From the NCBI GenBank assembly GCA_963977015.1, contig CAXBMO010000014.1, positions 1 through 64,000 of the forward strand: a DNA stretch of 64,000 nt. The letters are read 5' to 3'. Position 1 is the first letter of the stretch; every line of letters begins with the position of its first letter. Under the pieces are notes generated by a model that ran no database searches, was not told the DNA's origin, and was given only the letters and a program-made list of their open reading frames with translations. Positions 24,844 through 62,944 of this stretch are shown in pieces. The stretch is from an uncultured bacterium. GTDB taxonomy: Bacteria > Verrucomicrobiota > Verrucomicrobiia > Verrucomicrobiales > DEV007. Both the position numbers and the translations under genes were made by a program.

Positions 24844-24870
24844 CAACGCCGCCGGATAAAATCCCCCTCA
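24844..24870 (-). promoter_or_regulatory. Putative ECF promoter
   Basis: TGAGGG-N14-GGCGTTG. Confidence 0.75.
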
Positions 24871-25022
24871 ACAATATTCACAAACCGAGCCGATTTGGCA
24901 TTTGCCTCCCCCGAACGGAAAAAATCAGCCAGCCAATGGCGAATCCTCCAAAGCGAGAGACCAAAGCTCCTAAATAACCACCGGATTCTCATGGGCACCG
25001 AAACTCGCGCAGGGGTTCCTGT

Positions 25023-25520
25023 TTAGTTGGGTCCACTTGCGGCTACCGGGCCAAGCTTGTTGAGCGTGACGATGATGAAAATCATCACGAAAAGCGCGAC
25101 GCTTTCGATCACGCCGAGAATCATCATGAAATTGACGAAGCCTTGGTTGGTTTCGGCCAGCGCGTCTGAGGCGGCGGCACCGGCCCGGCCTTGCATGACG
25201 GCGGCGAGCCCGATGACGAGCCCTCCGAGCACGCCTCCGGTGAGCAGGTAGATGTAGGCGGAGTCCGGCGAATTGGCTTTCATGTGGGCGTCGCTCATGC
25301 TCAGGATTGTGTTCATGAGCAAGAACCCGTAAATGGTCTGCGTCAGCGGTGCGCCGACGAACGCCACGACGACGAACGGAAAGGGCTTGTTCTCCATGAA
25401 GCAGCGTTTGCCGGCTCCGATGGAAGCCATGCCCGCAATCCCCGTTCCCAGGGCCGATCCGAGGCCGGAGAGGGCTAACGCGGAGGCGTAGGCAATGGCA
25501 CAGGTGGTGTGAATGTCCAT
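25023..25520 (-). CDS. atpK: V-type ATPase subunit K
   Basis: 4-TM proteolipid, PLTQTIYG, MQG, IESVALF. Confidence 0.92.
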   Translation of the reverse strand: MDIHTTCAIAYASALALSGLGSALGTGIAGMASIGAGKRCFMENKPFPFVVVAFVGAPLTQTIYGFLLMNTILSMSDAHMKANSPDSAYIYLLTGGVLGGLVIGLAAVMQGRAGAAASDALAETNQGFVNFMMILGVIESVALFVMIFIIVTLNKLGPVAASGPN

Positions 25521-25521
25521 G

Positions 25522-27309
25522 TCAATGGGTGTCTTGAAGGTTGTCTGTGTGGTTGAGTTGAAAGGGTTGAAATTCGGTGCCGGACCACTCCAACTCGGCG
25601 TGGCCGGAGAACTCCAGCATGTTAAGCCGGACGCCGTGAACGATCACACCCAACGCGGCCATGGCGAGGTTGATCCCGTGGCCGAGGAGGAGCACGAGTC
25701 CCGCGAGCAGAACGCGACCCGGACCGCCAACCCCCAGGCCGGCGGCAATTTCGTTGAAGCTGGCGGCAACGGCGAGAGTCGCCATGCCGACCGCAAAGAG
25801 CCGGATGTAGGAGATGAGATCGCCAAAGCAGTTCATAAGCTTGAGCGGCAATCGCGCGACTCCGATCCCGGCTCCGCGCAGGAGGTTGCGCTGCGGTGCG
25901 GCGAAGAAAACGGCCAGCAGTGTGCCGGTGATGAGAAGTGCGTAGGCCAGGGGCGGAGTGGGCGTTTCCAACACGAGATAGCGGACCACGAAAAAGGAGG
26001 CTGCAACGATGAGCGTCCACCCGATCTGGCACAACGCGGTCAGCGAGTGGCGCTGACGCCAGGCGATGAGCAGATGGGCCGCGCAGAGATGGGTTGCCCC
26101 AATGACGAAGCAGATCAGCATCGCGGCTGGCTGGCTGGCGGGGTCGAAGGCGTCGAGCCGAGGAATGACCAGTGAACGCAGAACGGGCGCGTTGCCCAAA
26201 GCCTCGATTCCAAACCAGTTTCCGCTGAGCGCGCCCCAGGCGACCGTGGCACCGCCCAGGATAGCGAGCAGGCGGATGGCCTCGGCCGGCGGACGGCCGT
26301 AGCGCCGCCAGGCGAGCGTTGCCAGCAACGTCAGCAAACCATAACCGGCGTCGCCGATGAGGATGGCGAAGAACAGCGTCAGGTAGATGAGAAACCAGAG
26401 GCTGACGTCCATTTCGCGATAACCCGGCAGGCTGTTGATGATACGATAGACGGGGCCGGCCGATTCGATCCAGGGCGGGTTGGCGAGGTGCGTCGGAGCT
26501 TGGTCGTCAGGGTGAATCCGGCGTTCGAGCAGGGCGCCGCCTTGCTCGCGGGCGAAGCGATGCAACTCGGAAAGGCGCGGCTGGGGACAATAACCTTCGA
26601 GAATCGCCAAGGGACGGTTCGAACGCACGGTGGCGAGCGCGGCACGCAATTCACCTTGCTGCCGGAGGCGTCGGGCTTCGGCGTGGAGAACGTCGAGTTG
26701 CGGGCAAAAGGCGCGAAGCCGGCGATGGATTTCCAAAAGCCGCGCCTCAATTTTCCGGGCTTCGAGACGCAATTTGGACGGCGACTGGCTTGGCAGGGCC
26801 ACTTCCCGGAGGCCCGGAATCACCTCCGCTTCCCGGCTTAGGATGGCGATCCACCATTCCGGCGTGTCGCGTCGAATCACGGCTGCCGCATGGGTGGGCG
26901 CGAGACGGCGAAATTCTCGCTCCCGGCAGCGGTAAACCCGCAGGAAGAGGCCGCGCTCGCGCAACTCAGCAAGACTTTCGGGCTCGAAGTCTCCCAGCGG
27001 GGCGATTCGGGCCATTTCGGTTTGCAACTCGTGATGCCGGGTTTGCAGCGCCTCGCGTTCCTGAGCCATACTCAGCACGTCGGCCACGATTTCTGCCGCC
27101 GGGAGCGTAGGCCCGGCGGCAGATTCGGCGGCATCCTGACATTCTTCCAGAATCCGGATCGCCAATTCGACTCGTTGCAGTTCCTCGCCGGGTTCGGGCT
27201 CCGGGCGTTCCCGCAGATGAAGCACGCACAGTTCGCCCAATCGGCGCACCGCTTCCTCCCGCCGGGATTCCGGCATGAGCAAAGCGACAGCTTTCATGGG
27301 AACAATCAT
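25522..27309 (-). CDS. atpI: V-type ATPase subunit I
   Basis: MIVPMK start, GDAGYG, DLISYIRLFAVG, HGVRLNMLEF. Confidence 0.92.
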   Translation of the reverse strand: MIVPMKAVALLMPESRREEAVRRLGELCVLHLRERPEPEPGEELQRVELAIRILEECQDAAESAAGPTLPAAEIVADVLSMAQEREALQTRHHELQTEMARIAPLGDFEPESLAELRERGLFLRVYRCREREFRRLAPTHAAAVIRRDTPEWWIAILSREAEVIPGLREVALPSQSPSKLRLEARKIEARLLEIHRRLRAFCPQLDVLHAEARRLRQQGELRAALATVRSNRPLAILEGYCPQPRLSELHRFAREQGGALLERRIHPDDQAPTHLANPPWIESAGPVYRIINSLPGYREMDVSLWFLIYLTLFFAILIGDAGYGLLTLLATLAWRRYGRPPAEAIRLLAILGGATVAWGALSGNWFGIEALGNAPVLRSLVIPRLDAFDPASQPAAMLICFVIGATHLCAAHLLIAWRQRHSLTALCQIGWTLIVAASFFVVRYLVLETPTPPLAYALLITGTLLAVFFAAPQRNLLRGAGIGVARLPLKLMNCFGDLISYIRLFAVGMATLAVAASFNEIAAGLGVGGPGRVLLAGLVLLLGHGINLAMAALGVIVHGVRLNMLEFSGHAELEWSGTEFQPFQLNHTDNLQDTH

Positions 27310-27905
27310 GAGGAAACCGTCTGGAGTTTGCGTTTGGCGAGCTTGCCGCGCACCACCGCGGCCGCCTGCTGATCGCCCAGGAAAATCTTGAGGCGCCGAA
27401 TATTCTCGCGGGCATCGGGAATCTTGACTCGCTCGAAGAGGTTGACCCGTTGGCTGGTCACGATCAGTTCGCGCGCGATCAGTTCCCGGCGCCGCCGGAG
27501 CACGTGCTCCCTGGCATCCAACTCCAGGATGGAACGCGTTTCCTGGATGGCGCGGTCGATCCACGGGGGCGTTTCAAAGAGGTCGTAGCGAATCGGCTCG
27601 AGTTCGAGTTGCTCGAAGACCGGCAGATGCACCCCGGCGACGTTTTCGCTTCCCAAAACCAGCTCCCGCAACCGGAACCACCGGGCAAAATTCTCGCTAC
27701 CGCCGAGCACGGCGATCCAGGGCGCCATTTCCTCCTGGAGCCGCCCGCGCTCGGCGGCCACCCGGCGCAGCTCCTCGTCCAGCCGCCGAATCTGGAGTTG
27801 CAATTGTTGCTTCTTGAGCTGCAGCATCGGCAAAAAGCGTTCGAAACGCTTCAAGTCGTCTTTCTGGCGTTTCAGCTCGCTCTTGGTGTATTTGATTTTG
27901 GCCAT
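27306..27905 (-). CDS. atpD: V-type ATPase subunit D
   Basis: LPMLQLKKQQL, TSQRVNLFERVKIP. Confidence 0.92.
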   Translation of the reverse strand: MAKIKYTKSELKRQKDDLKRFERFLPMLQLKKQQLQLQIRRLDEELRRVAAERGRLQEEMAPWIAVLGGSENFARWFRLRELVLGSENVAGVHLPVFEQLELEPIRYDLFETPPWIDRAIQETRSILELDAREHVLRRRRELIARELIVTSQRVNLFERVKIPDARENIRRLKIFLGDQQAAAVVRGKLAKRKLQTVSS

Positions 27906-27906
27906 G

Positions 27907-29334
<1,428 letters not shown>

Positions 29335-29339
29335 GGTGG

Positions 29340-31085
29340 CTATGTCAGAGATTCCTGGTTGGCGGCCGAGCTGAGATGATCGCGGATTCCACGCTCTAGT
29401 TCGGCGAAACGCTCTGACTCGGGCGGCGTGTAATTCCAGTCGATAAACTTCTGTCGCAGCGTGTTGAAGAAGGTTCGAGCCTCGGCCTTGTCCGGAAAGT
29501 CAAGGTTCGCGTCGAGGATGTCCAGAATCAGCTCGAAACTCTGCTGTTGACGCTCGGAAGGGCAGAAAGCATCGACCTGGTCAAACGAATTTTGCTGGAG
29601 GTAGACGGCATCAATCAACTCGGCCTTGAGGTAACCCACGTAGTCGTCCATCGAGATGCCTTCCTCGCCAACCACCGTCATCATCTGCCGCGTTTCCTCG
29701 CCATGAAGCAGAACTTCGCGCGCTTTGGCGACCGATTCCGGCGAGAGCGCGCCGCGGTATTTGCTCCAACTCTCCAGCGGGTCGATGGCCGGGTAACGCC
29801 GCGCCTCAGCCCGGTTTCGCGAAAGCCCGTGGAAGGCGCCAACGACTTTGAGCGTGCTTTGGGTCACCGGTTCTTCGAAGTTGCCGCCCGCCGGGCTGAC
29901 GGTTCCGCCGATCGTCACCGAACCGGTGGTTCCATCGTGGAGCCGAACCAGCCCGGCCCGCTCGTAAAAGGCGCCGATCCGGGATTCGAGATAAGCCGGA
30001 AACGCCTCCTCAGCGGGAATTTCCTCCAGCCGTCCGGACATCTCGCGCAACGCCTGGGCCCAGCGAGAGGTGGAATCGGCCAGCAGCAGAGCGTGCAGCC
30101 CCATTTGCCGATAATACTCAGCCAGGGTGATGGCTGTGTAGATCGAAGCCTCGCGGGCTGCAACCGGCATGGAGCTGGTGTTGCAAATGATGATGGTGCG
30201 CTCCATGAGCGAGCGCCCGGTGCGGGGATCGCTCAGTTTGGGGAATTCGCGCATGGTCTCGACGACTTCGCCGGCGCGTTCGCCGCAAGCCGCCACGATG
30301 ACGACATCCACTTCCGCATGCCGACTGGTTACCTGTTGGAGGATGGTTTTGCCCGCGCCGAATGGGCCGGGAATGCAGTAGGTGCCGCCCCGCCCCACCG
30401 GGAAAAAGGTGTCGATCGTGCGGGTACCCGTGATCATGGGGTGCTCCGGCAGGAGACGCTTCCGGTAGCAGCGAATCGGCAGCTTGGCCGGCCAGCGAAA
30501 GTGCATCGTCAGTTCGCGCTCCGCACCGAAGGGATCGCGCAATTTCGCGATGGGGTCGTTCACGGTGTAGGCGCCGGATTCGCCGAGCCAATCAAGCGTC
30601 CAATCGCCGCGCAAGTCGAAGGGAGCCATGATGCGATGCTCGAACATGCCTTCCTGAACCTGCCCGAGGGTCGCCCCCGCTCCGACGGCCGCTCCAGGCT
30701 TGGCTTTGGGAAGAAAATCCCACTTTCGAGTCCGGTCGAGCGCCTCCGCATAGACGCCCTTGGGCAGAAACACGCCGTTGGTTTCGGCCAGCTTGACCAG
30801 GGGGTTCTGCAGTCCGTCATAGATCTGACCGAGAAGGCCGGGGCCCAGGTCCACGGTTAACAAGTCGCCGGTAAACTCCACCCGGTCCCCGGGCCCGAGT
30901 CCGCGGGTGTTTTCAAATACCTGCATCTCGGCGACGTCGTCGCGAATCCGGATTACCTCCGCTTTGAGGCGCTGATCGTCCAGCAGCGCGAACCCGACTT
31001 CGTTCTGGTGAACGCTGCCCTCGAACCGAACGGCGATGAGGTTGCCGTTTACGCCGATGATCGTGCCCTTCGCCTCGTTTTTCAC
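29340..31085 (-). CDS. atpA: V-type ATPase subunit A
   Basis: [37 protein letters not shown]. Confidence 0.96.
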
Positions 31086-31648
31086 GGTTCTTCCCAGGTT
31101 GGCAGTTCGGTCTCGAATCCTTGCCGGACGTCTTTGAGCGTCGCCTCCCCGCGCTTCGGCTTCATTGCGAGTCGTTGTTCGATCAACTGAAGTTTAAGGG
31201 CGTAAACGATCAGGTTTTCCAAGCGCATAAAATGAGCCCGGTCGAGTTCGCCGAGAAACTTCCAGCGGAGGACGAAGAGGCTGTGCTCGATTTGAAGCGG
31301 GGCGGGGTTCTCGAACACCTCGCGGATTCGCAGCGTTGCAAAGGCGGGCCGTTCGCGCCGGGTGAACTCGGCCGCGTCCCAGCCCAATCGGGCAGCCCGA
31401 AGCACCAGAAGTTGCTCGCGCAATTCCGCGTCAAATGCGCGCCAACGGGCATAGATCGGATTTTGGGGTGGTGAATCGTGGTCGTCGATCCGCGCATTGG
31501 CGAGGGCTCGCAACTCCCCGGGCTGGACATAACGGCTGCAAACCGCAAGGAACGCCTCCAGGGAAAGGCTGGGTTCGCGCGCCGGGGTCAATTCGCGCGC
31601 CGGGGTCAAAGTTGGGAGCGAAGCCGCCAGGTAGTAATAAGCGCCCAT
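31082..31648 (-). CDS. V-type ATPase DUF2764 (subunit C-like) protein
   Basis: YYYLAASLP start; position between E and A. Confidence 0.8.
   Translation of the reverse strand: MGAYYYLAASLPTLTPARELTPAREPSLSLEAFLAVCSRYVQPGELRALANARIDDHDSPPQNPIYARWRAFDAELREQLLVLRAARLGWDAAEFTRRERPAFATLRIREVFENPAPLQIEHSLFVLRWKFLGELDRAHFMRLENLIVYALKLQLIEQRLAMKPKRGEATLKDVRQGFETELPTWEEP
31574..31609. repeat. 18-bp tandem duplication, in frame
   Basis: ttcgcgcgccggggtcaa x2, encoding LTPARE twice. Confidence 0.9.
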
Positions 31649-31651
31649 TTC

Positions 31652-32323
31652 TCAGTTTTGTTTTTCGCGGTTCGGGGTTGCCTCTGCCGCGGCTTCCACC
31701 AGCAGGGCGCGAAGGCGTTCTCCCACGAATTGGCCAAGCCACTCCGCCAACATGGGAGCGGTGAAGTCGTAATGCGCCCGGCCGTCCTTTAGCCCAATCC
31801 GCAGTCCCGCCGGGATGTCCGGGCTGGGTTTCAGTTCCACGCCGGCCAACAGGTGGGCGACCAACTCATCTTGCCCCAACCCCTGAAGGGCATCCAGGTC
31901 ATCGGGCCCCAAAAGGGATTCCAACTCCGCCTCCGGCTCGTTCTTGCGCCAATTTTCGGCCAGCGCGTGTAGGATGCTCGCCAACTCCTTCCCGCGCATC
32001 GCCTCGGCGGTCTTCCGCCCCAGAACCACGCGCAATTGCGCCAGCAAAGCCGCCTCAAAACCCAGCAGAGCATCCCGGCTCGCCCGTTTCACCGCGTCCT
32101 GCGAGGTTGTCTCAAAACGCTCCGCCTCCTTTCGCCCCTCCTCAATGATGCGGGCCGCCTCTTCCTTCGCTTTGGTTAGCATTTGCCGAGCCTGGGTTTC
32201 GGCCGATTTCAAGACGCGACCAGCCTCAACCTCGGCCTCCTCGACGGCCTCGCGGCGGATCGAGTCGATCAGAGATTGGAAGGCGTTGATGGAGTCGTCA
32301 GCGTGGTCGGTTGCAGTGGGCAT
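31652..32323 (-). CDS. atpE: V-type ATPase subunit E
   Basis: LIDSIRREAVEEAE coiled coil, AGLRIGLKDG..YDFT. Confidence 0.85.
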   Translation of the reverse strand: MPTATDHADDSINAFQSLIDSIRREAVEEAEVEAGRVLKSAETQARQMLTKAKEEAARIIEEGRKEAERFETTSQDAVKRASRDALLGFEAALLAQLRVVLGRKTAEAMRGKELASILHALAENWRKNEPEAELESLLGPDDLDALQGLGQDELVAHLLAGVELKPSPDIPAGLRIGLKDGRAHYDFTAPMLAEWLGQFVGERLRALLVEAAAEATPNREKQN

Positions 32324-32340
32324 AAGCTCCTCAGCGCTTA

Positions 32341-32367
32341 AAACGCCACCCTGACGAATACCACTCA
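32341..32367 (-). promoter_or_regulatory. Putative ECF promoter of V-ATPase operon
   Basis: TGAGTG-N14-GGCGTTT. Confidence 0.6.
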
Positions 32368-33035: not shown

Positions 33036-33062
33036 CAACGCCGGACGGACCAAATCCCCTCC
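33036..33062 (-). promoter_or_regulatory. Putative ECF promoter (leftward)
   Basis: GGAGGG-N14-GGCGTTG. Confidence 0.7.
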
Positions 33063-33070: not shown

Positions 33071-33097
33071 TGAGGGAGCATGGCAAATCCGGCGTTG
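33071..33097 (+). promoter_or_regulatory. Putative ECF promoter (rightward, glgX)
   Basis: TGAGGG-N14-GGCGTTG. Confidence 0.75.
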
Positions 33098-33149
33098 AAC
33101 AAAGTAAAGCTGGAGGATGAATATTTCCGTCTCCAACGTAAGTAACCCC

Positions 33150-35949: not shown

Positions 35950-35976
35950 CAACGTCACGCGCCGGACAATCCCTCG
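35950..35976 (-). promoter_or_regulatory. Putative ECF promoter
   Basis: CGAGGG-N14-GACGTTG. Confidence 0.5.
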
Positions 35977-37903: not shown

Positions 37904-37930
37904 TAACGCCGACAAAGGGGCCTACCCTCA
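37904..37930 (-). promoter_or_regulatory. Putative ECF promoter
   Basis: TGAGGG-N14-GGCGTTA. Confidence 0.75.
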
Positions 37931-39172: not shown

Positions 39173-39199
39173 GAACTCCGCGAATCGAGCAATCCCTCA
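39173..39199 (-). promoter_or_regulatory. Putative ECF promoter
   Basis: TGAGGG-N14-GGAGTTC. Confidence 0.55.
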
Positions 39200-42179: not shown

Positions 42180-42186
42180 GGTTCGG

Positions 42187-42624: not shown

Positions 42625-42631
42625 GAAAAGC

Positions 42632-48707: not shown

Positions 48708-48735
48708 AAACGCCATTTCTCCAGGCAAACCCTCA
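48708..48735 (-). promoter_or_regulatory. Putative ECF promoter
   Basis: TGAGGG-N15-GGCGTTT. Confidence 0.55.
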
Positions 48736-52734: not shown

Positions 52735-52736
52735 GA

Positions 52737-54599: not shown

Positions 54600-56004
54600 C
54601 TTGAGCAGCCTGAAAAAACGTTTGGGTTCCACGAGATTGCATGGCTTCCTCCAATCGCTTGAGGGCGACCGCATAGGAAGCCGTGCGCCAGTCCGTGGAA
54701 TTTTCCTGAGTTACCCGCTCCACTGCCTGAAACGCAGCCACCATTCGTTGTTCGAGTTCGCGGTGAACTTTTTCCAAAGGCCAGGATCCGGCCCGATTTT
54801 GGAGCCATTCAAAGTAGCTCACGGTCACTCCACCGGCGTTGGCGAGGATGTCGGGCAGAACGGTGATTCCTTTGGCATTCAGAATGGCATCGGCTTCCGA
54901 GGTCGTCGGGCCATTGGCGATTTCAACAAGGTAGCTTGCCTTGATGCGACCAGCGTTCTCAGCCGTAATCTGATTCTCAATCGCAGCCGGGATCAAAATA
55001 TCGACGTCGAGCTCAAGCAGTTCCCGGTTGCTGATGTGGCTCGCTTCACAAGCTGGGCATTCGCAGTCTTCGCAACAGCACTCATGGTCAATGCTTCCAC
55101 AGTGGGAACACTGACAAACCGATCTGCCGCAATAGACGTCCTCGACAAATTCTCTCCGATTCTTGCTTTCGATGACCGCGGGAATGTCCAGGCCGCTGGT
55201 TTGAAACAGTCCGCCTTTCACGTCGCTGACCGCGATCACGCGATAACCATCAGCATGGAGGAGCGCGGCTATGCTCTGACCGGCATTGCCGAAGCCTTGA
55301 ATCGCAACTCTGACGGCGGACGGCTGCCATCCTTTTCGCGCCTCCAATTCCTTGATGCAGTAGTAAGCCCCCCGTCCGGTCGCGTCATCCCGACCCAGGC
55401 TGCCACCGAGTGGAATCGGTTTGCCGGTGATGACTGCCGGGCAGAGTTCGCGGCGAATCCGCGAATATTCGTCCATCATCCAGCCCATGATGATCGGATT
55501 GGTGTAAACGTCAGGAGCGGGAATGTCGCGGTTCGGCCCGATGAAATCCGCCACTTGCTGGACGAAGGCGCGGCTGAGGCGCTCCAATTCCATGCGCGAG
55601 AGTTGATGGGGATCGACCGCGACACCTCCTTTAGCTCCGCCGAAAGGAATATCCAACAAGGCACACTTGCAGGTCATCCAAAAGGCCAATGCCTTCACCT
55701 CGTCGATGTTGACATCGGGATGATAACGCAACCCGCCCTTGGTCGGCCCCCGCGAGTCGTCGTGGCGGATGCGATAGCCGCGAAACACGCGTTGGGAGCC
55801 GTCATCCATCCTCACACGAACGGAAACCAGAAGCGCAGCCAAGGGCTCACGCAACTGTTCCTTCACTTCGGCGCTGATTCCGGCAATCTCCGCTGCTCGA
55901 TCCAGGCGCGAGAGGGCGTCGTCGTAGATCGAACGGGTGCTGGATTTGGGTAACGTGGAGGAAGTCTCGGCAGGCCTTCCAACAGCAGTCTGAGGTGCAG
56001 TCAT
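54592..56004 (-). CDS. gdhA: Glu/Leu/Phe/Val dehydrogenase with Cys-rich insertion
   Basis: KGGLRYHP, GGAKGG, DIPAPD, QGFGNAG, NAGGVTVSYFEW. Confidence 0.92.
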   Translation of the reverse strand: MTAPQTAVGRPAETSSTLPKSSTRSIYDDALSRLDRAAEIAGISAEVKEQLREPLAALLVSVRVRMDDGSQRVFRGYRIRHDDSRGPTKGGLRYHPDVNIDEVKALAFWMTCKCALLDIPFGGAKGGVAVDPHQLSRMELERLSRAFVQQVADFIGPNRDIPAPDVYTNPIIMGWMMDEYSRIRRELCPAVITGKPIPLGGSLGRDDATGRGAYYCIKELEARKGWQPSAVRVAIQGFGNAGQSIAALLHADGYRVIAVSDVKGGLFQTSGLDIPAVIESKNRREFVEDVYCGRSVCQCSHCGSIDHECCCEDCECPACEASHISNRELLELDVDILIPAAIENQITAENAGRIKASYLVEIANGPTTSEADAILNAKGITVLPDILANAGGVTVSYFEWLQNRAGSWPLEKVHRELEQRMVAAFQAVERVTQENSTDWRTASYAVALKRLEEAMQSRGTQTFFQAAQDA

Positions 56005-56098
56005 GGTGATGTCACTATTTCGGAGTTTGCTTTTTGGGTGGCCAACGCGAACGCACCGAGCTGTATCTGAACAAAACGATGTCCGTTAGCGCGCGGTA

Positions 56099-56656
56099 TC
56101 ACTTGTGGCCCCCCTTCATACCGTGGCCCCCATGACCGCTGCCGTGCTCTTGCATCCGCGACCACATCTGACCGTGCGAACGGCCAGCCTTCCAACAGCG
56201 ATTCCAGCCGAACATATGCCCGCCGGACACAAATCCGGGGCCATGCAAGTTGCCGTGTTGAAGCCCTCCTCCCTGCACCCAGTCTGCCCGGCCATAAAAT
56301 TGACTGCATTTACCAGCGGGGTCGGAAGCCGTGGGATGCGGCGCAAGTTCCATCGTTTTCCCATCCACTTCGATCTTCAGCGGTTCGGCATCAATTGGCG
56401 CGGGCTGTTTCAGGTCTTTGTCCCAAGTGTGGATCATGACTTCGCCGGTTTCTTGATTCGCCAATAATTCAGCGTTGACGGAGCCATCGTCGTTCGGAAT
56501 AAGGTCTCCCCCATTCGGACCGGCTTTGGCGGAGCCGCAACCGGGAAGCAAAATTGTCAGCGCGGCGAGCGCGACAACCCAGATGGCCAACAGCAGCCAG
56601 TGTTGACGGTTGGCGGAGGCAGAGTGTTCCGCAGAGTGTAAGGTTTGTTCGTTCAT
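56099..56656 (-). CDS. Hypothetical lipoprotein
   Basis: LPGC lipobox, GPNGG motif, His/Met tail. Confidence 0.7.
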   Translation of the reverse strand: MNEQTLHSAEHSASANRQHWLLLAIWVVALAALTILLPGCGSAKAGPNGGDLIPNDDGSVNAELLANQETGEVMIHTWDKDLKQPAPIDAEPLKIEVDGKTMELAPHPTASDPAGKCSQFYGRADWVQGGGLQHGNLHGPGFVSGGHMFGWNRCWKAGRSHGQMWSRMQEHGSGHGGHGMKGGHK

Positions 56657-57558
56657 TGGTCTGGATTTGGTTGGTGTTGATGGGCATCGGCCGGTGAATC
56701 CTGTTTGCCGGATTCATGCCCGGTTAGAGCCTTGCGCTGATCGTCACTGAGAACCTCGGCAGCCATACCAACCGCGGAGATAAAACTGAGTCTCTGCTGC
56801 GAGGTGAGCGTCCCAATCTCGGCCAACTTCGTCTGGATCGCGGCGGTATTGGGCTCAGCGACGCTGGTAAGGCTCCAGAGTTCTTCCTCCGCCTTTTCGA
56901 TCTGGCGATCGAATTCGCTCTGTTCGGCCAGCGCCTTTTCCTTGATTCCGTTGAGTTGCTGCTGTTGCTCGGTGGTCAGTTTCAGGTGCTCCAGGTGATC
57001 CAGGAAGAAACCGGTCGAGCCAATGTGGTAAATGTGTGAGGCTCCCGGGAAACCGGGCAAGGCAGAGATTTCGAGAGAAGCATCCGGAGATTTTCCCATT
57101 TTGCTCATGTGGTCCATTCCCATTCCCTGCTTCATCATCGCCATGCCCATCTTCATACCGTCCATCTTCATACCATCCATCTTCATACCGTTTATCTTCA
57201 TACCATCCATCTTCATGCCATCCATCTTCATGCCATCCATCTTCATGCCGTCCATCTTCATGCCGTCCATCTTCATGCCGTCCATCTTCATGCCGTCCAT
57301 TCCTTTGCCTTTGCCCATCGCCATTGCGCCGCCGCCTCCCTTGCCATGCGATGTGTGGTCGTGTGTGCCGGCCGCTTCATCGGCGGTTCCCCGATGATTC
57401 TTGCCAAGCGCGGCTTGCAACTTGGCAACCGTGGCCCGGAGTTCGATGATCTGGTCTTCGAGCGATGGTTCGGACGGCTTCTGATCCTGCGCTAAAGACA
57501 AAGTTGCGAGGGGAACCAGAGCGAGAATGGCGAGGCTGCGTTGAATACGAGCATTCAT
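56653..57558 (-). CDS. Periplasmic Spy/CpxP-like protein with Met-rich repeats
   Basis: Signal peptide, LTTEQ and LSDDQ (LTxxQ), ten GMKMD-type units. Confidence 0.8.
   Translation of the reverse strand: MNARIQRSLAILALVPLATLSLAQDQKPSEPSLEDQIIELRATVAKLQAALGKNHRGTADEAAGTHDHTSHGKGGGGAMAMGKGKGMDGMKMDGMKMDGMKMDGMKMDGMKMDGMKMDGMKINGMKMDGMKMDGMKMGMAMMKQGMGMDHMSKMGKSPDASLEISALPGFPGASHIYHIGSTGFFLDHLEHLKLTTEQQQQLNGIKEKALAEQSEFDRQIEKAEEELWSLTSVAEPNTAAIQTKLAEIGTLTSQQRLSFISAVGMAAEVLSDDQRKALTGHESGKQDSPADAHQHQPNPDQ
57145..57300 (-). repeat. 15-bp tandem repeat, about 10 units
   Basis: (catcttcatgccgtc)n variants encoding GMKMD. Confidence 0.95.
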
Positions 57559-57611
57559 GAGGATTTAGGTAGGATTTGAATTTGAGCCGCAATAGAGGCC
57601 CTTACCCGGTT

Positions 57612-57638
57612 CAACGCCGCCAAAGCAAATTGCCCTCT
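57612..57638 (-). promoter_or_regulatory. Putative ECF promoter
   Basis: AGAGGG-N14-GGCGTTG. Confidence 0.72.
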
Positions 57639-57696
57639 AAGAAGTTGGCGTTTTTCACTTCTGGCAGGGATTGTGGGCCCCGCTAGACCGCCAATT

Positions 57697-58311
57697 CTAT
57701 GTGAGATGGCTCGGCAACAGCTTGCTCAGCGACTTTCTTAGTTGCTTTCGAGCACGGTAGAGCCGCATTTCAATCGTCTTAGCCGAGCATCCCACAATTC
57801 CGCCGATCTGCTGATAGGAAAGGTGCTCGAATTCAAAGAGAATCAAAGCCGTCCGTAAATCATGAGGCAGGTGACTAATCGCTTCGCTGACCAGCCGGAC
57901 GCGATCGCTGCGATCGGCGCTGTCGTCCGGGCCATCCTTTGGGCATGTCAGGTTTTGAAGCGAGTCTTGCGAGTCATTTTCTTCGTCATTTTGGCAGGCC
58001 ATGGCGCTGCCGGGATGACGCCGGCGCCATCGCGCTTCATTTCGCGCCAGATTGACTGCAATGGCAAACAACCATGCGGAAAAGGCATGGCTCGGGCGAT
58101 ACCGGCTGCGGCTCTGATAAACCCGGACGAAGGTTTCCTGGGCCAGGTCAACGGCAACGCTCCAATTGCTTGTATAGCGATACAAGAAGGAAACCAGAGG
58201 CTGCTTCCAACGCTCTATGAGGTCGTTGAGCGCCAAATCATCGCCCTCTCGCAGCCGCGCCATGGTTGCCTTGTCCAGGGTGTCCCGGTTGGATTCTTCC
58301 GAACTGGTCAC
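57697..58311 (-). CDS. ECF sigma factor
   Basis: DLAQETF, FSAWLFAIAVN, SYQQIG...TIEMRLYRARKQL; GTG start overlaps upstream stop. Confidence 0.92.
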   Translation of the reverse strand: MTSSEESNRDTLDKATMARLREGDDLALNDLIERWKQPLVSFLYRYTSNWSVAVDLAQETFVRVYQSRSRYRPSHAFSAWLFAIAVNLARNEARWRRRHPGSAMACQNDEENDSQDSLQNLTCPKDGPDDSADRSDRVRLVSEAISHLPHDLRTALILFEFEHLSYQQIGGIVGCSAKTIEMRLYRARKQLRKSLSKLLPSHLT

Positions 58312-58826
58312 TCTTCGTGTTTGTCGTAGCTCGGGGCTGCATCGTGCCGTTCCAATGGCACGGGTGATACGGCGCTGTGTTCGTGCAGACCTGCATCGAC
58401 CAGCCGGGCGGTCATCATTTCCCGGTAGCGTTTCGCGGACTCTGGATTCATCTCCTTGCTGACGTCGTAGATGTGTTTCAAGGTAGCCTTTCGGCAACGT
58501 TCCCGGAGGATCGTTGCCTCCTCGAGCGACGATTCGATTTCGGGCGTGATTTCTGTGCTTTCCCGAAGCAGTTGGAGCAGATGGCGATTACTTTTCTCCA
58601 AGGCGTCACAATATCCGAGGCATTCGACTTGATGGGCGGCATGGAGTTCGCGAATATTGGCGAAATTCTCTTCTTCAATGTGATATTCATGCCGGAGCCA
58701 TTGCAGTTCGGAGTATTCGCCGCGCGTCATCGCGGCAACCTCAGCATAAGAAGCGTTGAAAATCAGCCAATAGGCAAGCGCAGCCAGCATTGCAATAATG
58801 GTAAGGATGAAATATCCGCGCTTCAT
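58308..58826 (-). CDS. Periplasmic heavy-metal sensor, CnrX/ZraP-like
   Basis: N-terminal TM, LQWLRHEY, HAAH..C...C, C...LKH. Confidence 0.72.
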   Translation of the reverse strand: MKRGYFILTIIAMLAALAYWLIFNASYAEVAAMTRGEYSELQWLRHEYHIEEENFANIRELHAAHQVECLGYCDALEKSNRHLLQLLRESTEITPEIESSLEEATILRERCRKATLKHIYDVSKEMNPESAKRYREMMTARLVDAGLHEHSAVSPVPLERHDAAPSYDKHEE

Positions 58827-59188
58827 CGCGAAACGGCTTTCAAATGGTTCGGCGCCAAGGGATCAATGGTAACAGCGTAGCGTTCGCCCAGTCGCTGCAA
58901 TGTATGATGGGAGGCGAGTTGGGAATGGATCTGAGCCGCGAAAGCTGTCAGCGTCAAAACCGCCAACGCGATCGACACGGCAACTCGAGGTCGGGCCATC
59001 TGTTCGCCTACAAACTCAAGCCACTTTCCCAAGCCTCGAACGTCGTCCTGCCGGGAGCTGATACGTTGCCAAACAGCGCGGTCAAAGTCCGGAGGAATCT
59101 TGGGTTCGATGTCCCAGGAATGGAGAAGCTCCTTGAGCTGGGAATCGTCTTCTTCTGTGGCATGGTTGTTTCTCGGCTTATTTTTCAT
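58823..59188 (-). CDS. Anti-sigma factor-like membrane protein
   Basis: QLKELLHSW....PPDFDRAVWQRI, one TM, Y...IDP. Confidence 0.72.
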   Translation of the reverse strand: MKNKPRNNHATEEDDSQLKELLHSWDIEPKIPPDFDRAVWQRISSRQDDVRGLGKWLEFVGEQMARPRVAVSIALAVLTLTAFAAQIHSQLASHHTLQRLGERYAVTIDPLAPNHLKAVSR

Positions 59189-59211
59189 GAAGTGGGGATT
59201 CTTCCCGAGTT

Positions 59212-59238
59212 CAACACCGGTGGAGCGGGATTCCCTCA
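59212..59238 (-). promoter_or_regulatory. Putative autoregulatory ECF promoter
   Basis: TGAGGG-N14-GGTGTTG. Confidence 0.7.
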
Positions 59239-59373
59239 AGAATCGTGGACTTTTGAGGCGAAAAAGGGAATCAAATCTCGCAATTTTTGCAGAACTAGAA
59301 TTCCAACCGGTTGAGGAGGAAGTAGCCGGCCCTTTCTTGATCGGAGTCCAGCTAGCCGCAAAACAAAGCTTAA

Positions 59374-61110
59374 CTAAATAAAATAAGCCTTGGAGACATA
59401 TTGCTGAAGCATGCGCTGAGCGCTGAAAAACGAACCGTTCAGCGCAATGCAATGGCGCATCGTTTCAACATACCGGCCCCATTGGTTGTAAAAGAGTGGG
59501 ATAATCTCGTTTTCGAGCTTGTTGTAGAGAGAGTTAGCGTCATTCAGCCGGCGGTCGCCGGAACTCACCGGACTGCCAGGAAGCGAGCCAATCGCCCATC
59601 CGGTAACGCCTTCTACGCAGCCTTCAAGCCACCAGCCATCGAGCACGCTCAGGCTGGGCACCCCGTTCACGGCCGCCTTCATCCCGCTGGTGCCTGAAGC
59701 CTCCAGCGGTGGCTCCGGGGTATTGAGCCAGACATCGCAGCCGGCCACCAGCAGCTTGGCCAGTTCCATGTCGTAGTTTTCCAGGTAGGCAACCTCAATG
59801 TTTGGCGCGAGCTGAGTTCGGGCGTGAAAGATTCGGCGGATGATCTCTTTGCCCTCATTGTCCGCAGGGTGCGCCTTCCCCGCGAAGATGAGTTGGATGG
59901 GCCGGGTTGGGGAACTGAGTGCTCGCAACCGGTCGAGATCGTGGAAGATCAGGTCCCCTCGTTTGTAGGTTGCGGCACGGCGGGCGAAGCCAACAGTCAA
60001 CGCATCCACGTTCAGTTCCGAACCCTGGCTGCTGTTGACTCGGGCGATCAGATCATACTTGGCCACCGCATGGGCTCGCCAGACGGCTTGTGGAGGAATG
60101 ATGAGGGCATTTCGAAGGCTGTAGCTGTCTTCGCGCCACCCGGGTAGATAGCGGTCGAAGATTTCCTGAAACGGAGGGGCTGCCCAGGTGGCCGTGTGCA
60201 CGCCATTGGTGATCCAGTCGATCTGGTAGTTCAATTCGTCACGCTTGGGCTGCAGCATCGCGCGAGAAACTTCACCGTGTTTCTTGGCCACTCCGTTGAC
60301 GTAGTGACTGAGATTCAGGGCGAGGTAAGTCATGTTCAGGACGCCATCACAGCAGAACACCTCATGATTGTCGAAGATGTCGGCGCGTCCGAGCGCTCCC
60401 TGGGCAACGCTCAAAGGAAATTGATCGTGCCCGGCCGAGACTGGCGTGTGAGTGGTGAACACGCATTGCCGGCGAACGTGTTCCACGTCTTCGTGGTCGA
60501 ATGTCTTGCGGCCACGGGATTTCGCCGATTCGTCGAGCAATTCCAGCCCGATCAGCGCGGCATGGCCTTCGTTCATATGAAAGCGGGATACGTTGTTATA
60601 TCCCAAGGCGCGAAGCAGCCTGACGCCTCCGATGCCGAGGATCATTTCCTGCAGCAAGCGGTAGCGACCATTGCCGCCGTAGAGCTTGTCCGTCAGGCCT
60701 CGGTCGCCCTCGCAATTCTCGGATAGATTCGAATCAAGGAGATAGACCGGGACGATTGCGCCTTTGACTCCAGAGACATTGTATTTCCAGGCGCGAAGCA
60801 TGACCTCTCGCCCTTCGACAGAGAGTAATACGCGCTGCGGCAGTTTTTCCAAGTGCTCCTCAATCGGCCAATTGGCGTCGTGCTCGATCTGGTATCCTTC
60901 GGGGTTGAGTTCTTGTCGAAAATACCCGAGGCGATGAATCAACGAAACAGCCACCATGGGGACGCCGGAATCGGCTGCGGCACGGATCATGTCGCCAGCC
61001 AAAACTCCGAGGCCCCCGCTATAGGTCTTCATCGCCGGATGAAGGGCAATTTCCATGGAGAAATAGGCCACCACTGGCGAATCCGCATTTGAACTGGGTT
61101 CGCTGGCCAT
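59374..61110 (-). CDS. glgP: Alpha-glucan phosphorylase
   Basis: YSGGLGVLAGD, HMNEGH, ARRAATYKR, EASGTSGMKA. Confidence 0.95.
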   Translation of the reverse strand: MASEPSSNADSPVVAYFSMEIALHPAMKTYSGGLGVLAGDMIRAAADSGVPMVAVSLIHRLGYFRQELNPEGYQIEHDANWPIEEHLEKLPQRVLLSVEGREVMLRAWKYNVSGVKGAIVPVYLLDSNLSENCEGDRGLTDKLYGGNGRYRLLQEMILGIGGVRLLRALGYNNVSRFHMNEGHAALIGLELLDESAKSRGRKTFDHEDVEHVRRQCVFTTHTPVSAGHDQFPLSVAQGALGRADIFDNHEVFCCDGVLNMTYLALNLSHYVNGVAKKHGEVSRAMLQPKRDELNYQIDWITNGVHTATWAAPPFQEIFDRYLPGWREDSYSLRNALIIPPQAVWRAHAVAKYDLIARVNSSQGSELNVDALTVGFARRAATYKRGDLIFHDLDRLRALSSPTRPIQLIFAGKAHPADNEGKEIIRRIFHARTQLAPNIEVAYLENYDMELAKLLVAGCDVWLNTPEPPLEASGTSGMKAAVNGVPSLSVLDGWWLEGCVEGVTGWAIGSLPGSPVSSGDRRLNDANSLYNKLENEIIPLFYNQWGRYVETMRHCIALNGSFFSAQRMLQQYVSKAYFI

Positions 61111-61112
61111 GA

Positions 61113-62354
61113 CTAAAGATAGGGGCAGTGAAGTCCGAAGGTTTGATACAACTCATGCGGCACCGGAAGAAGGATCGCCAGCAAAAGCGCAAACGTCGCG
61201 TAACCCAGAATCCTGCGCGGCAGGCCAACGGGCGTGATGTCGTTGGCCGGCGGAACGTCACGAGTTCCGGCGATCCAGAACACGATGATGGCCCACATGA
61301 GCAATCCCGGCCAAATGAAGAATGCCAAGAGGAAAATTCCCACCAGGGAAGCAACGCCGATCGCGTGTGCTTTGGCTGGGCCAAAGAGCGCATGAGCCAA
61401 ATGGCCGCCATCCAGTTGCCCGATCGGGAGCAGGTTCAGCGCGGTAACCAGCAAGCCAAGCCAACCCGCGAACGCCAATGGATGCAACGCTATTTGATGG
61501 CCTTCCAACAACTCGCTTCCCAGTGCAAGCTTCGAGAGCAGGGCCATGAGGAGAGACGAGCCTACATTCACACCTCCCCCGTGCATCCAGTTGGTTGGTG
61601 CGCCGCTGGTGATGAGTTCCGAGTGGCGCAGTCCGATCAACAAGGCGGGAATCGCGAAAACCAGTCCAGCGAGTGGCCCGGCAACGGCGACATCGAACAG
61701 AGCACGCCGATTTGGGCTGAGTGATTTGAGCTTGATGAACGCACCAAAGGTTCCCAGGGCGAAGGGAACGGGAATGAAGAAAGGAGGCGTGACCCTGAGA
61801 CCGTGCTTTCGAGCGGTGAAATAGTGTCCCAACTCGTGGGCACCCAAAACGAGAAGCAATCCCAGACTGTAGGGAAGCCCCTGGAGGACGGAAGCGGGAT
61901 TCTCGATCGGGTTGACTCCCGCATGCCAGGCTCCGGTCCACGTGGTGGTGCCTAACGTGAGCACCAGAAGCAGCCCATGCACCCACCATCGTGGATGCTC
62001 CGTTCTCGTCTTCGGAATACCGGGAAGCAGCAAAACGCGGACCCGGCCATCCTCGGCCTCCTGAAGCATCGGCGTAAACTCTTGATCGGAAAAAGCATCG
62101 TTCAGCTTGCTCTGCGCTTCTTCGGCATTGGCTTTCAGCTTGCCTTCAAAGCTCAAGACGTCGTTGTCGAACCGGTGGCCAGAGATTGCGAGAACCTCAG
62201 AAACCTTGTCCTGATGCAAACCGATATCATCGGGTAACGGCGGCGGAGACGATTCCGCAGAGACCGTTTGATGGCACTGTGAGGCGGAACCAAAGAGAAA
62301 TCCAATCCACAGAAACAGGAAAATGAGCAGCAACAAAAAGAAGATGGACATCAT
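61113..62354 (-). CDS. Site-2 protease (M50)
   Basis: HELGH, AGPLAG, NLLPIGQLDGGH. Confidence 0.92.
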   Translation of the reverse strand: MMSIFFLLLLIFLFLWIGFLFGSASQCHQTVSAESSPPPLPDDIGLHQDKVSEVLAISGHRFDNDVLSFEGKLKANAEEAQSKLNDAFSDQEFTPMLQEAEDGRVRVLLLPGIPKTRTEHPRWWVHGLLLVLTLGTTTWTGAWHAGVNPIENPASVLQGLPYSLGLLLVLGAHELGHYFTARKHGLRVTPPFFIPVPFALGTFGAFIKLKSLSPNRRALFDVAVAGPLAGLVFAIPALLIGLRHSELITSGAPTNWMHGGGVNVGSSLLMALLSKLALGSELLEGHQIALHPLAFAGWLGLLVTALNLLPIGQLDGGHLAHALFGPAKAHAIGVASLVGIFLLAFFIWPGLLMWAIIVFWIAGTRDVPPANDITPVGLPRRILGYATFALLLAILLPVPHELYQTFGLHCPYL

Positions 62355-62361
62355 GGCGGAA

Positions 62362-62667
62362 CTAGGATTTTCCGGTTTGGATTTTGAGGCAGCAATTGTA
62401 GACCGAAGCAATGATGACGCCCGCGAGCCAACCGAGGACGAATGTTGAAATCATGCCCAGAAAGGCTTCCAGAAAGGGAACGTTTTGGCGCAGCACCGGC
62501 TCGACATCGAGGCCGTGAAGCAGACTGTTGAAGAAAACGACCGCTTTCTCATGCGGAACCGTGGCCATCGTGATGATGCAGCCGAGATAGAAGAGCAAGG
62601 CGGTGGCCCCAATACCAAAACCGAATCGGTAGGTCGAGAGGGATGGAGTGTTTGGGCTAACGCTCAT
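62362..62667 (-). CDS. DUF5676-like membrane protein
   Basis: LFYLGC...FFNSLLHGLD...ASVYN. Confidence 0.7.
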   Translation of the reverse strand: MSVSPNTPSLSTYRFGFGIGATALLFYLGCIITMATVPHEKAVVFFNSLLHGLDVEPVLRQNVPFLEAFLGMISTFVLGWLAGVIIASVYNCCLKIQTGKS

Positions 62668-62872
62668 GATGGGTTGTTGATTTGGATTGATGCTGCTCCC
62701 CGTGAAGCAGCAGCATGTGAAGGAGATGAAAGCCGAAAACCAGAAGGAGAAATCCGGTGACCGCGGCAGTGTTCCCCAGCCCGGCAAGCGGCAATAGGAA
62801 CAGGATGAGAAAGGGCAGGATGCAGCACAGAGCCATCCTGATGAGGTCTTTGTGAGAGGGCGACAAAGGCAT
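62657..62872 (-). CDS. Small Cys/His membrane protein (DUF2933-like)
   Basis: MALCCILP, HLLHMLLLHGEQH. Confidence 0.6.
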   Translation of the reverse strand: MPLSPSHKDLIRMALCCILPFLILFLLPLAGLGNTAAVTGFLLLVFGFHLLHMLLLHGEQHQSKSTTHHER

Positions 62873-62917
62873 GGCGTGGGTTTGTTGGTTGGGAGGCTTT
62901 CACGCCTCTACCTACAT

Positions 62918-62944
62918 CAACGCCAGAGCGGCGATTCCCCCTCA
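62918..62944 (-). promoter_or_regulatory. Putative ECF promoter
   Basis: TGAGGG-N14-GGCGTTG. Confidence 0.75.

Follow-up and report, generated by a model that had tools for sequence, protein, structure and literature searches.

Introduction

The closest described relative of the system considered here is CnrYXH of Cupriavidus metallidurans CH34 (plasmid pMOL28), in which, according to PMC6851896, the extracytoplasmic function (ECF) sigma factor CnrH (group ECF20, now ECF291) is held by the anti-sigma factor CnrY and freed by the Ni- or Co-bound sensor CnrX, the promoters concerned being cnrYp and cnrCp. The present analysis deals with a two-part DNA signal, TGAGGG-N14-GGCGTT, which recurs in a metal-resistance island of an uncultured bacterium of the Verrucomicrobiota (lineage DEV007; assembly GCA_963977015.1). 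The stretch analyzed, referred to below as the window, comprises 64,000 nucleotides (nt), i.e. positions 1-64000 of contig CAXBMO010000014.1 (C14), and belongs to a genome of 6.89 Mb in 51 contigs with a G+C content of 56%. The signal very probably marks promoters of one class, recognized by CnrH-like ECF sigma factors that form a family, and, judged by its layout, most likely represents the CnrH-type promoter class in a verrucomicrobial dialect.

An original prediction made from the window had described eleven such sites as the regulon of one metal-sensing sigma factor and had held this system to be undescribed. The latter view is not supported, since the motif is laid out like cnrYp and cnrCp, the CnrH promoters that have been mapped, and both the regulator and the promoter class are thus known (CnrYXH; ECF20/ECF291). 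As for the motif in Verrucomicrobiota, no publication describing it was found in a search outside which lay the ECF Hub and the full supplement of Casas-Pastor et al. 2021.

In the accessible parts of Casas-Pastor et al. 2021 (PMC7826278), group ECF291 is characterized by an anti-sigma factor resembling CnrY at position -2 and a heavy-metal resistance protein at position -1. The taxa listed there (Text S2) are Proteobacteria and Cyanobacteria only, and the motif predicted for subgroup s1 is given as "TCTCC in -35 and TACGCA in -10". None of the groups for which the same portion of text lists Verrucomicrobia has the gene layout described below, and the strings GAGGG, TGAGG, GGCGTT and GCGTT have no occurrence in the first 357,196 characters of the supplement text, tables and logos aside.

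A 2026 paper (PMC13492112) reports that the -10 element of cnrYp, CCGTATA, was located by primer extension and confirmed by run-off transcription, and that the main transcription start site (53286) lies 23 bp upstream of cnrY; this position is 9 nt after the hexamer GCCGTA. Table 4 of that paper quotes the ECF Hub consensus of ECF291 as -35 ATACGC and -10 CCCTCA, which is the reverse complement of TGAGGG...GCGTAT. The consensus as printed there is inconsistent with, and opposite in strand to, the cnr promoters and the loci described here. The TCTCC/TACGCA motif of Text S2, in the orientation in which it is printed, likewise misfits both.

The pMOL28 sequence itself (locus L152) reads CAAGGG-N15-GCCGTA at cnrYp, ending 32 nt before cnrY, and CGAGGG-N15-TCCGTA at cnrCp, ending 33 nt before cnrC. 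When a relaxed pattern was run on a 4.5-kb stretch of pMOL28, only these two places were found in the sense orientation (five overlapping registers). Within L152 the cnr promoters occupy positions 1252-1278 and 2626-2652.

The loci described below share with CnrYXH (i) the gene order small single-pass anti-sigma factor (a putative one in the present loci), CnrX-type periplasmic sensor, ECF sigma factor, (ii) the promoter class before the system's own operon and before adjacent RND efflux genes, (iii) a G-rich -35 element (CAAGGG/CGAGGG in cnr) with xCCGTA about 15 nt on, compared with TGAGGG-N14/15-GG(C/T)GTT here, and (iv) in the second system of the island, a sensor (sensC) that matches CnrX (E 7e-15) and keeps the aligned ligand residues. 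They differ in belonging to another phylum, in the end of the -10 element (GTT here, GTAT in cnr), in the number of paralogous systems per genome (five) and of promoters (approximately 21-23 predicted here, two in cnr), in the reach of the predicted targets, which extend to a V-type ATPase, an antiporter and glycogen catabolism, and in the presence of A-type sensors, in which a C-x3-C pair is found and the first CnrX histidine is missing.

A similar arrangement (hypothetical small protein, "periplasmic heavy metal sensor", sigma factor) is found on two alphaproteobacterial copper-resistance plasmids, pCB4 of Caulobacter henricii and pASTEX02 of Asticcacaulis, with TGCGGG-N14-TGCGTA upstream, TGAGGG-N14-CGCGTA on the divergent strand and copper-related neighbours. 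The sigma factors of these plasmids, encoded after CnrX-like sensor genes, are 31-37% identical to those studied here, compared with 23-30% for CnrH. Unlike the verrucomicrobial set, these proteobacterial sets are small, local and copper-focused, and the two loci examined hold no V-type ATPase or glycogen genes.

An island equipped with its own ECF sigma factor also has a precedent in Genomic Island 6 (GI6) of S. coelicolor, where, as stated in bioRxiv 10.1101/247056, SCO3450 governs a self-contained, transferable regulon. GI6 resembles the present island in having its own ECF sigma factor, anti-sigma factors and a contiguous regulon with common -35 and -10 elements. It differs in that sigma group and phylum are unrelated and the cargo serves small-molecule metabolism; moreover, the GI6 regulon was shown by induction and microarrays, whereas the one presented here is predicted.

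A repeated two-part signal in the window

A pattern search of the window found all eleven (11 of 11) reported sites. The position of the plus-strand site (33071) was exactly as noted, while the ten minus-strand coordinates had to be raised by one, to 24845, 32342, 33037, 35951, 37905, 39174, 48709, 57613, 59213 and 62919. The assignment of a 14-nt spacer to ten of the sites was correct, the eleventh (48709) having N15. The proposed consensus holds for the spacer, but both hexamers are exact in only four of the ten N14 sites (24845, 37905 and 62919 on the minus strand and 33071 on the plus strand). Five others carry one mismatch (32342, TGAGTG; 33037, GGAGGG; 39174, GGAGTT; 57613, AGAGGG; 59213, GGTGTT), and one carries two (35951, CGAGGG and GACGTT).

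These numbers were compared with 100 dinucleotide shuffles of the window, in which 0.00 exact N14 matches were expected, against the four observed. With the spacer relaxed to N13-16, five exact hexamer pairs were present (48709 being added), compared with 0.05 expected. When up to two mismatches were allowed at N14, the window contained 23 matches, taking in all ten N14 sites, compared with 7.25 ± 2.71 expected; the shuffle maximum was 14 and none of the 100 shuffles reached 23. The repeated two-part signal is real.

At all 11 sites a plausible start codon follows on the same strand, the first one 9-118 nt past the -10 hexamer, which agrees with the claim that each site stands in sense orientation within about 120 bp of a gene start. 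The back-to-back pair at a divergent junction (33037, minus; 33071, plus) and the single site ahead of an operon for a small membrane protein, a sensor and a sigma factor (59213) were likewise found as described.

Neither the flanks of the 11 sites (mean identity 0.27, maximum 0.35) nor their spacers (mean identity 0.31) are related to one another, which indicates a bipartite signal and not copies of a repeat element. What the sites have in common outside the hexamers is an A/T-rich tract directly upstream of the -35 element, a preference for C before the -10 hexamer and, following this hexamer, A in positions two and three.

An island gene for a MerR-family regulator (42187-42711) raises the question of whether the motif might be the operator of a DNA-binding protein such as this one, or else the remnant of a mobile repeat. 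Either is highly improbable, since the motif is asymmetric and non-palindromic, its spacer is fixed in length and free in sequence between unrelated flanks, and its orientation relative to genes is strict. Furthermore, its position before sigma factor operons is conserved across a phylum, its layout is that of promoters shown to be CnrH-dependent, and the operon of the MerR-family regulator itself lacks the motif.

Distribution of the signal in the genome

Genome-wide, the exact hexamer pair occurs eight times with N14 and only 1-4 times with each other spacer between N10 and N19. Six of the eight N14 sites are located on C14, one on contig C42 and one on C2; the reversed genome contained none. 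A position weight matrix (PWM) confined to informative columns gave the ten N14 sites, each scored with itself left out, 19.1-28.1 bits. At 22 bits or more, 17 N14 matches were detected in the whole genome, compared with one in the reversed-sequence control, whose N14 matches were distributed as three at 18-20 bits, none at 20-22 and one at 22-24.

Thirteen matches of at least 22 bits (all spacers) had not been used to train the matrix. Nine of them are intergenic and another (C14 74313) lies 48 nt ahead of a gene start; these ten well-placed matches are C14 48735, 65229, 74313 and 74391 and C42 686, 8721, 10526, 17516, 21562 and 22344. The remaining three all have N13 and fall within coding regions, and the matches below 22 bits, mostly coding, are noise. 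The division into coding and intergenic is approximate, the gene map being crude (92% coding, with the gene for glutamate dehydrogenase called on the wrong strand and an amino-acid transporter missed). Equal frequency in coding or antisense positions, named by the original prediction as the outcome contrary to it, was looked for genome-wide and not found: strong matches are mostly intergenic and the sites are all in sense.

Strong matches are almost confined to C14 (24.8-74.4 kb) and C42. In total, approximately 21-23 promoters of this class are predicted in the genome, located in the C14 island (24.8-74.4 kb), on C42 and at one locus on C8. Outside the window, the site at C14 74288 stands ahead of DUF3347, OEP, CusB-like, CusA-like and CDF genes, and the sites at C42 686 and C42 17516 stand ahead of RND/OEP operons, making three RND/OEP operons with the motif upstream. 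Sites at C14 65204, C42 10526, C42 17469 and C8 86329 precede sensor/sigma factor operons.

Contig C42 (28.8 kb) is a second dense cluster of the promoter class, with TGTGGGGt-N-GGCGTTTAAg as the favoured variant, and carries two sensor/sigma factor operons, two RND/OEP operons and CDF genes. C42 and the window, the latter beginning at a contig end, may be parts of one element.

Sigma factor, sensor and putative anti-sigma factor systems

The site at 59213 is followed, on the minus strand, by a proposed CnrY-like anti-sigma factor of 121 aa (58823..59188), which has a cytoplasmic N-terminal part, the sequence PPxFxxxVWxxI, one hydrophobic stretch and a short C-terminal tail. Next come the genes for a membrane-anchored, CnrX/NccX-related sensor, sensA (58308..58826), with a weak Metal_resist match, a C-x3-C pair and the first CnrX histidine missing, and for the ECF sigma factor sigA (57697-58311), with domains Sigma70_r2 and Sigma70_r4_2.

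A second system, also on the minus strand, straddles the window end (65159 to 62982). It begins with a site whose hexamers are both identical to the consensus (C14 65204-65229), followed by the genes for a small membrane protein (C14 64845-65159), for the CnrX homologue sensC (C14 64377-64832) and, directly after it, for sigC (C14 63831-64370); the last gene, sigB (62982..63668), encodes the second intact ECF sigma factor. The product of sigC is 60% identical to that of sigB next to it. In the assembly, the sigma-4 part of sigC is distributed over two further reading frames, implying two frameshifts, and sigC is either a decaying tandem duplicate or the result of an assembly error.

The genome contains three more such systems, two on C42 (with sigD and sigE) and one on C8; SigD is 59% identical to SigA. 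All five small protein/sensor/sigma factor operons are preceded by the promoter class, and both Sigma70_r2 and Sigma70_r4_2 were found in SigA, SigB, SigD and SigE. On contig C2 (119138-119716, minus strand) there is also an ECF paralogue that is 33% identical to SigA and contains one in-frame TGA, which may point to a pseudogene or to a recoded codon.

The Metal_resist domain (PF13801) scored above its cut-off in the sensors beside sigC/sigB, sigD, sigE and the C8 sigma gene, and below it in SensA. Compared with solved structures, SensC matched CnrX/NccX at E 7e-15. Conserved in it are the residues that align with the metal ligands of CnrX, i.e. two N-terminal histidines, His119 and Met123; we take the ligand numbering in CnrX to be H42, H46, H119 and M123. 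SensA, SensD and the orthologue from the related genome G035 lack the first of the two N-terminal histidines and have a conserved C-x3-C pair, while the residue aligned with His119 is kept (A-type sensors; the genes compared lie at 58308-58826 of the window, L001 10918-11433 and L027 730-1230). This suggests that the A-type sensors may differ in metal specificity from the neighbouring CnrX-like sensor. SensC would be expected to respond in a Ni/Co-like manner, and the C-x3-C pair of SensA hints at a thiophilic metal. Metal dependence would follow solely from the CnrX homology of the sensors.

When aligned, the small proteins (104-125 aa) have in common an N-terminal PPxFxxxVWxxI, a single hydrophobic segment and a short tail. 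SigA was modelled in complex with residues 1-62 of the small protein encoded beside it, and the model scored 0.81, compared with 0.00 for the best control, a mark reached by 116 of 157 solved complexes and by 2 of 215 mismatched pairs. Model runs agreed in at least 81% of contacts, with a partner pLDDT of at least 69, and the modelled contacts fall on sigma-2 (SigA residues 28-66) and sigma-4 (residues 134-200). The model supports binding of the small protein to SigA, but it may reflect likeness to the CnrH-CnrY structure (PDB 4cxf).

Conservation in related bacteria

A SigA homologue (E <= 1e-30) was found in 31 of 60 genomes of the same family. At about two thirds of the distinct family sigma loci there is a sense-strand PWM match of at least 13 bits before the small-protein gene, 816-1334 nt upstream of the sigma gene, in a scan that had no control at this threshold and in which several rows were re-fetches of one place. 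The site before the sigA-type operon is kept at approximately 850-1000 nt upstream of the orthologous sigma genes.

A profile of A-type sigma factors was then used to fetch 80 loci, mostly from Verrucomicrobiota of several orders and some from Acidobacteriota, 78 of which had enough upstream sequence. A relaxed motif, nG[ACG]GGG-N13-15-GGn[GA]T[AT], was present 465-1546 nt upstream in the sense orientation at 37 of these 78 loci, compared with 11 in antisense and 3 in reversed sequence, the commonest form being TTTT-TGAGGG-(g/a)TTTTC...GGGGTAttac.

Some further positions also recur. A site right after the sigma gene, like that at 57613, is present in relatives L018, L020 and L024. YHS genes carry the motif in genomes G035, G018 and G025, as does a P-type ATPase gene in G025, and methyltransferase genes are motif-bearing among relatives too. 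G025 partly resembles the genome studied here, with six exact matches compared with one in the control. DUF5676 is encoded in 2 of the 60 relatives, and a motif-like site exists at one of them (G014, locus L158), where a homologue of the 71-aa protein described below precedes DUF5676.

The reading of the motif as an ECF promoter is thus supported: the motif has two parts at a constant spacing, CGT in the -10 element and a strict sense orientation, is conserved before sigma factor operons and is concentrated on the island contigs. The part of the original prediction that ascribed it to one sigma factor is not supported, because two systems are present in the island and three more in the genome, all with the promoter class upstream.

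Genes located downstream of the sites

On the minus strand at the left of the island, the exact site 24845..24870 lies 63 nt before the ATG of a gene for a 47-aa His-rich lipoprotein (24638-24781), which is followed by a gene for a 136-aa secreted protein. Between the site TGAGTG-N14-GGCGTT at 32342..32367 (minus) and the ATG (32323) with which a V-type ATPase operon (25023-32323, minus) opens there are 18 nt; the seven genes of this operon encode E-like, DUF2764, A, B, D, I and K proteins.

At the divergent junction, the minus-strand site GGAGGG-N14-GGCGTT (33037..33062) stands ahead of a carboxymuconolactone-decarboxylase-family (CMD) gene (32394-32972), whose ATG (32972) follows after 64 nt, and the exact plus-strand site (33071..33096) is situated 20 nt before the ATG of a gene for a GlgX-type debranching enzyme (33117-35225).

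The exact site at 37905..37930 (minus) stands 60 nt before a LOG-like (SLOG cluster 4) gene (37155-37844), after which comes a Na+/H+ exchanger gene (35955-37148). This antiporter had been listed as regulon cargo; it can be reached from 37905 through the LOG-like gene, but the site at 35951 is not its promoter. The latter, CGAGGG-N14-GACGTT (35951..35976, minus) and the weakest of all, overlaps the 3' end of the antiporter gene and faces, at a distance of 81 nt, a gene for a 43-aa His/Cys-rich lipoprotein (35738-35869).

The site TGAGGG-N14-GGAGTT at 39174..39199 (minus) precedes by 9 nt the ATG (39164) of a methyltransferase gene (38391-39164), which is followed by a YHS-domain gene (38031-38369). 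With the ATG 9 nt past the -10 element, the mRNA would have little or no leader. On C42, too, a motif site stands 15 nt upstream of a paralogous methyltransferase gene (L001 8761-9540).

The N15 site (TGAGGG-N15-GGCGTT; 48709..48735, minus) is located 118 nt before the ATG of a gene for a 331-aa protein (47595-48590), which had no Pfam or NCBIfam match and for which a GNAT-like identity is a lead only. The site AGAGGG-N14-GGCGTT (57613..57638, minus) is located 54 nt before the gene for a 301-aa His/Met-rich protein with a Metal_resist domain (56653-57558). The latter is followed on the same strand by a 185-aa ORF, a glutamate dehydrogenase gene, a FAD/NAD/2Fe-2S reductase gene, a 249-aa ORF and a multihaem cytochrome gene, and then, across an 80-nt gap, by a multicopper oxidase gene (48768-51125), directly upstream of which no weaker site was found.

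The site of the sigA operon, TGAGGG-N14-GGTGTT (59213..59238, minus), lies 24 nt before the proposed anti-sigma gene. The last site of the window is exact (62919..62944, minus) and lies 46 nt before the gene for a 71-aa His-rich membrane protein (62657-62872), followed by genes for DUF5676 (62362-62667), an M50 peptidase (61113-62411) and an alpha-glucan phosphorylase (59374-61110).

Three of the genes directly behind sites are tiny (24638-24781, 35738-35869 and 62657-62872, all on the minus strand) and below usual ORF cut-offs. The 47-aa and 43-aa products have a lipobox Cys and His- or Cys-rich tails, and the 71-aa product is a membrane protein with a His-rich tail. These three motif-preceded genes probably encode unannotated metal-binding peptides.

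Weighing the assignment to CnrH-like sigma factors

Several observations weigh against the assignment of the motif to CnrH-like sigma factors, or against the full extent of the regulon. Concerning the proteins, no specific Pfam or NCBIfam model was reached by the sigma factors for any subgroup (only the general ECF model TIGR02937), and the best solved relatives of SigA are AlgU/RpoE-type sigma factors (1e-28) and not CnrH (3e-10). SensA matches a solved structure, that of NccX, only weakly (E 0.029), and the small proteins matched no Pfam family, the CnrY models included; a BLAST comparison of them with CnrY also gave no significant match. Concerning the sites, the -10 element before the sigA operon is GGTGTT, while eight of the ten other window sites have GGCGTT, and the weakest sites (35951, 33037 and 32342) could be non-functional. 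Among sequencing runs, only DNA metagenomes were listed as containing parts of positions 56000-63000 of the window, and no RNA run was.

Concerning conservation, the exact pattern gave 60 matches in the 60 family relatives, compared with 57 in the reversed control; as the exact pattern is thus not above control there, the large regulon is particular to this genome. A homologue of the V-type ATPase E subunit was found in one of the 60 relatives (G030), without the motif upstream; a scan of genome contigs gave no other relatives of this subunit, and a scan of metagenome contigs gave a single contig of 100% identity. The locus of a same-genus GlgX homologue (68% identical; G035) contains no site of 17 bits or more. 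Target conservation is patchy, and for the unusual targets no conservation was seen among the few relatives open to such a comparison.

Such patchiness raises the alternative that only the core sites work, i.e. those of the sigma factor operons, metal pumps and small metal-binding proteins, and that the V-type ATPase, GlgX/CMD and 43-aa lipoprotein sites are fortuitous. In addition to the fact that regulon membership of the V-type ATPase and GlgX was not seen in the relatives examined, the sites of the V-type ATPase, CMD and 43-aa lipoprotein genes have one or two mismatches and the lowest or near-lowest scores (21.1, 20.0 and 19.1 bits). However, the GlgX site is an exact match, the weakest site outscores all but one N14 match in the reversed-genome control, and the disputed sites are all intergenic, correctly oriented, 18-81 nt from start codons and provided with the A/T-rich tract upstream of the -35 element. 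We consider this restriction to the core sites quite unlikely.

The difference in the -10 element bears on which sigma factor reads which sites. GGTGTT is found before sigA, sigD and their closest A/D-type orthologues (L006, L007, L015 and L019), while GGCGTT is the form before the sigC/sigB, sigE and C8 operons. One could suppose that all 11 sites form one coherent regulon under the sole control of SigA (57697-58311), as its gene lies in the middle of the island with the motif ahead of its operon, and a site immediately following the sigma gene is kept in the A-type relatives L018, L020 and L024. However, a second system with an exact-consensus promoter lies 3.7 kb away and three more systems lie elsewhere, and the GGTGTT of sigA, sigD and the orthologues departs from the GGCGTT of most window sites, which makes sole control by SigA rather unlikely.

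It is also conceivable that the GGCGTT sites are read mainly by SigB, whose system is a bona fide CnrX-type one, and that SigA mainly autoregulates and has few other targets. The second-system promoter at 65204 is identical to the consensus in both hexamers. In genome G025, a sigma factor 54% identical to SigB (also to SigC and SigE) is accompanied by GGCGTT or GACGTT ahead of the operon that encodes it, of a YHS gene and of a P-type ATPase gene, while in G035 an A/D-type sigma factor goes with GGTGTT before its own operon and a YHS target. On the other hand, the A-type loci L018, L020 and L024 adjoin GGCGTT sites, the third base of the -10 element varies freely (G, C or T) among A-type relatives, the genomes sampled are few and related to each other, and sigC, the gene directly after the sensor, is frameshifted as assembled. 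Such a division of labour between SigB and SigA is, in our estimate, rather improbable as well.

Cross-recognition by the paralogous sigma factors is the most economical reading. Since five systems share the promoter class, the driver of each individual site cannot be told from sequence.

Island units without the motif and island context

Some units of the island have no site even with the relaxed pattern: the operon for the MerR-family regulator, the CopZ-MerT/HMA proteins and an outer-membrane protein; the AMP-binding/ACP/decarboxylase genes with the divergent MurJ-like gene; the 181-aa ORF at 39218; and the amino-acid transporter and CopA genes. CopA lies 2.3 kb downstream of the 24845 site, and a 388-nt gap separates the transporter and CopA genes from the 24845 unit.

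The original prediction had counted copper export, V-type ATPase, glgX, glycogen phosphorylase, a redox chain and surface modification as jointly induced cargo. The V-type ATPase, glgX, the phosphorylase unit and the redox chain are indeed preceded by the motif, but CopA, the MerR/CopZ operon and the "surface modification" genes are not. Better support for a link to copper export comes from beyond the window, where the site at C14 74288 precedes Cus-like and CDF genes.

The first of the motif-less units (39917-42711, minus strand) consists of genes for the MerR-family regulator (42187-42711), a zf_CopZ-MerT-HMA fusion, an HMA protein and a MetA-type outer-membrane protein, which suggests a second, cytoplasmic regulatory layer of the CueR/MerR type within the island.

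The part of the window at positions 1-20066 encodes a tyrosine integrase (16546-17862), an rve_3 (transposase) fragment, a C5-methylase fragment, a PD-(D/E)XK nuclease, DUF3150 and DUF1257 proteins, an AAA ATPase, a DnaN-like protein and, at the contig end, a 1112-aa WD40 protein. The integrase, the nuclease and the transposase and methylase fragments fit a mobile island, and the metal-resistance island on C14 is probably mobile.

A proposed regulatory scheme and its implications

By analogy with CnrYXH, binding of metal to the sensor would free the sigma factor from its anti-sigma factor. RNA polymerase holoenzyme would then start transcription approximately 7-9 nt past GGCGTT, both at the sigma factor's own operon and at every other site. 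Since the two island systems have sensors with different ligand sets, probably more than one of the paralogous sigma factors acts on the sites, and several metal inputs would converge on one promoter set.

Classical targets of such a scheme would be the Cus/Czc-like RND pumps, the multicopper oxidase chain, the His/Met/Cys-rich small envelope proteins and the YHS protein. The additional predicted targets are the V-type ATPase, the LOG-like/Na+/H+ antiporter operon, GlgX and the alpha-glucan phosphorylase, which may give ion-gradient and energy support to efflux; the ATPase, antiporter and glycogen genes are placed in the predicted regulon by motif position alone. The analysis itself establishes the statistics, position and orientation of the motif, its conservation ahead of sigma factor operons, the homology of sensors and sigma factors and the resemblance to the cnr promoters. 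Sigma dependence, metal induction, the pairing of sigma factors with sites and the physiological rationale are the components of this scheme that we infer.

A bolder version, which we put forward as possible yet doubtful, regards the island as carrying several CnrYX-type modules, with His/His/His/Met or Cys-x3-Cys sensors, that would act as an OR gate on one promoter class. In the same tentative picture, taken as a whole, this class would extend to a bioenergetic programme of V-type ATPase, Na+/H+ antiporter, glycogen debranching and phosphorolysis enzymes and glutamate dehydrogenase. In the literature searched, no description of an ECF-wired energy module for metal resistance was found. If the picture is true, metal stress would directly trigger ion-gradient generation and the mobilization of carbon reserves, powering RND, CDF and P-type efflux.

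What appears to be new here, as predicted from the loci compared, is the occurrence and multiplicity of this class in Verrucomicrobiota, the size of the island-bound regulon and its extension to V-type ATPase, antiporter and glycogen genes. If the assignment is true, the CnrYXH paradigm, with its one studied example and two promoters on a betaproteobacterial plasmid, would reach the Verrucomicrobiota, where homologous loci are widespread, and TGAGGG-N14-GGnGTw would provide a usable promoter model for the annotation of metal regulons in this phylum. It would also offer a testable link between the sensing of metals in the envelope and energy and ion homeostasis (V-type ATPase, antiporter and glycogen breakdown).

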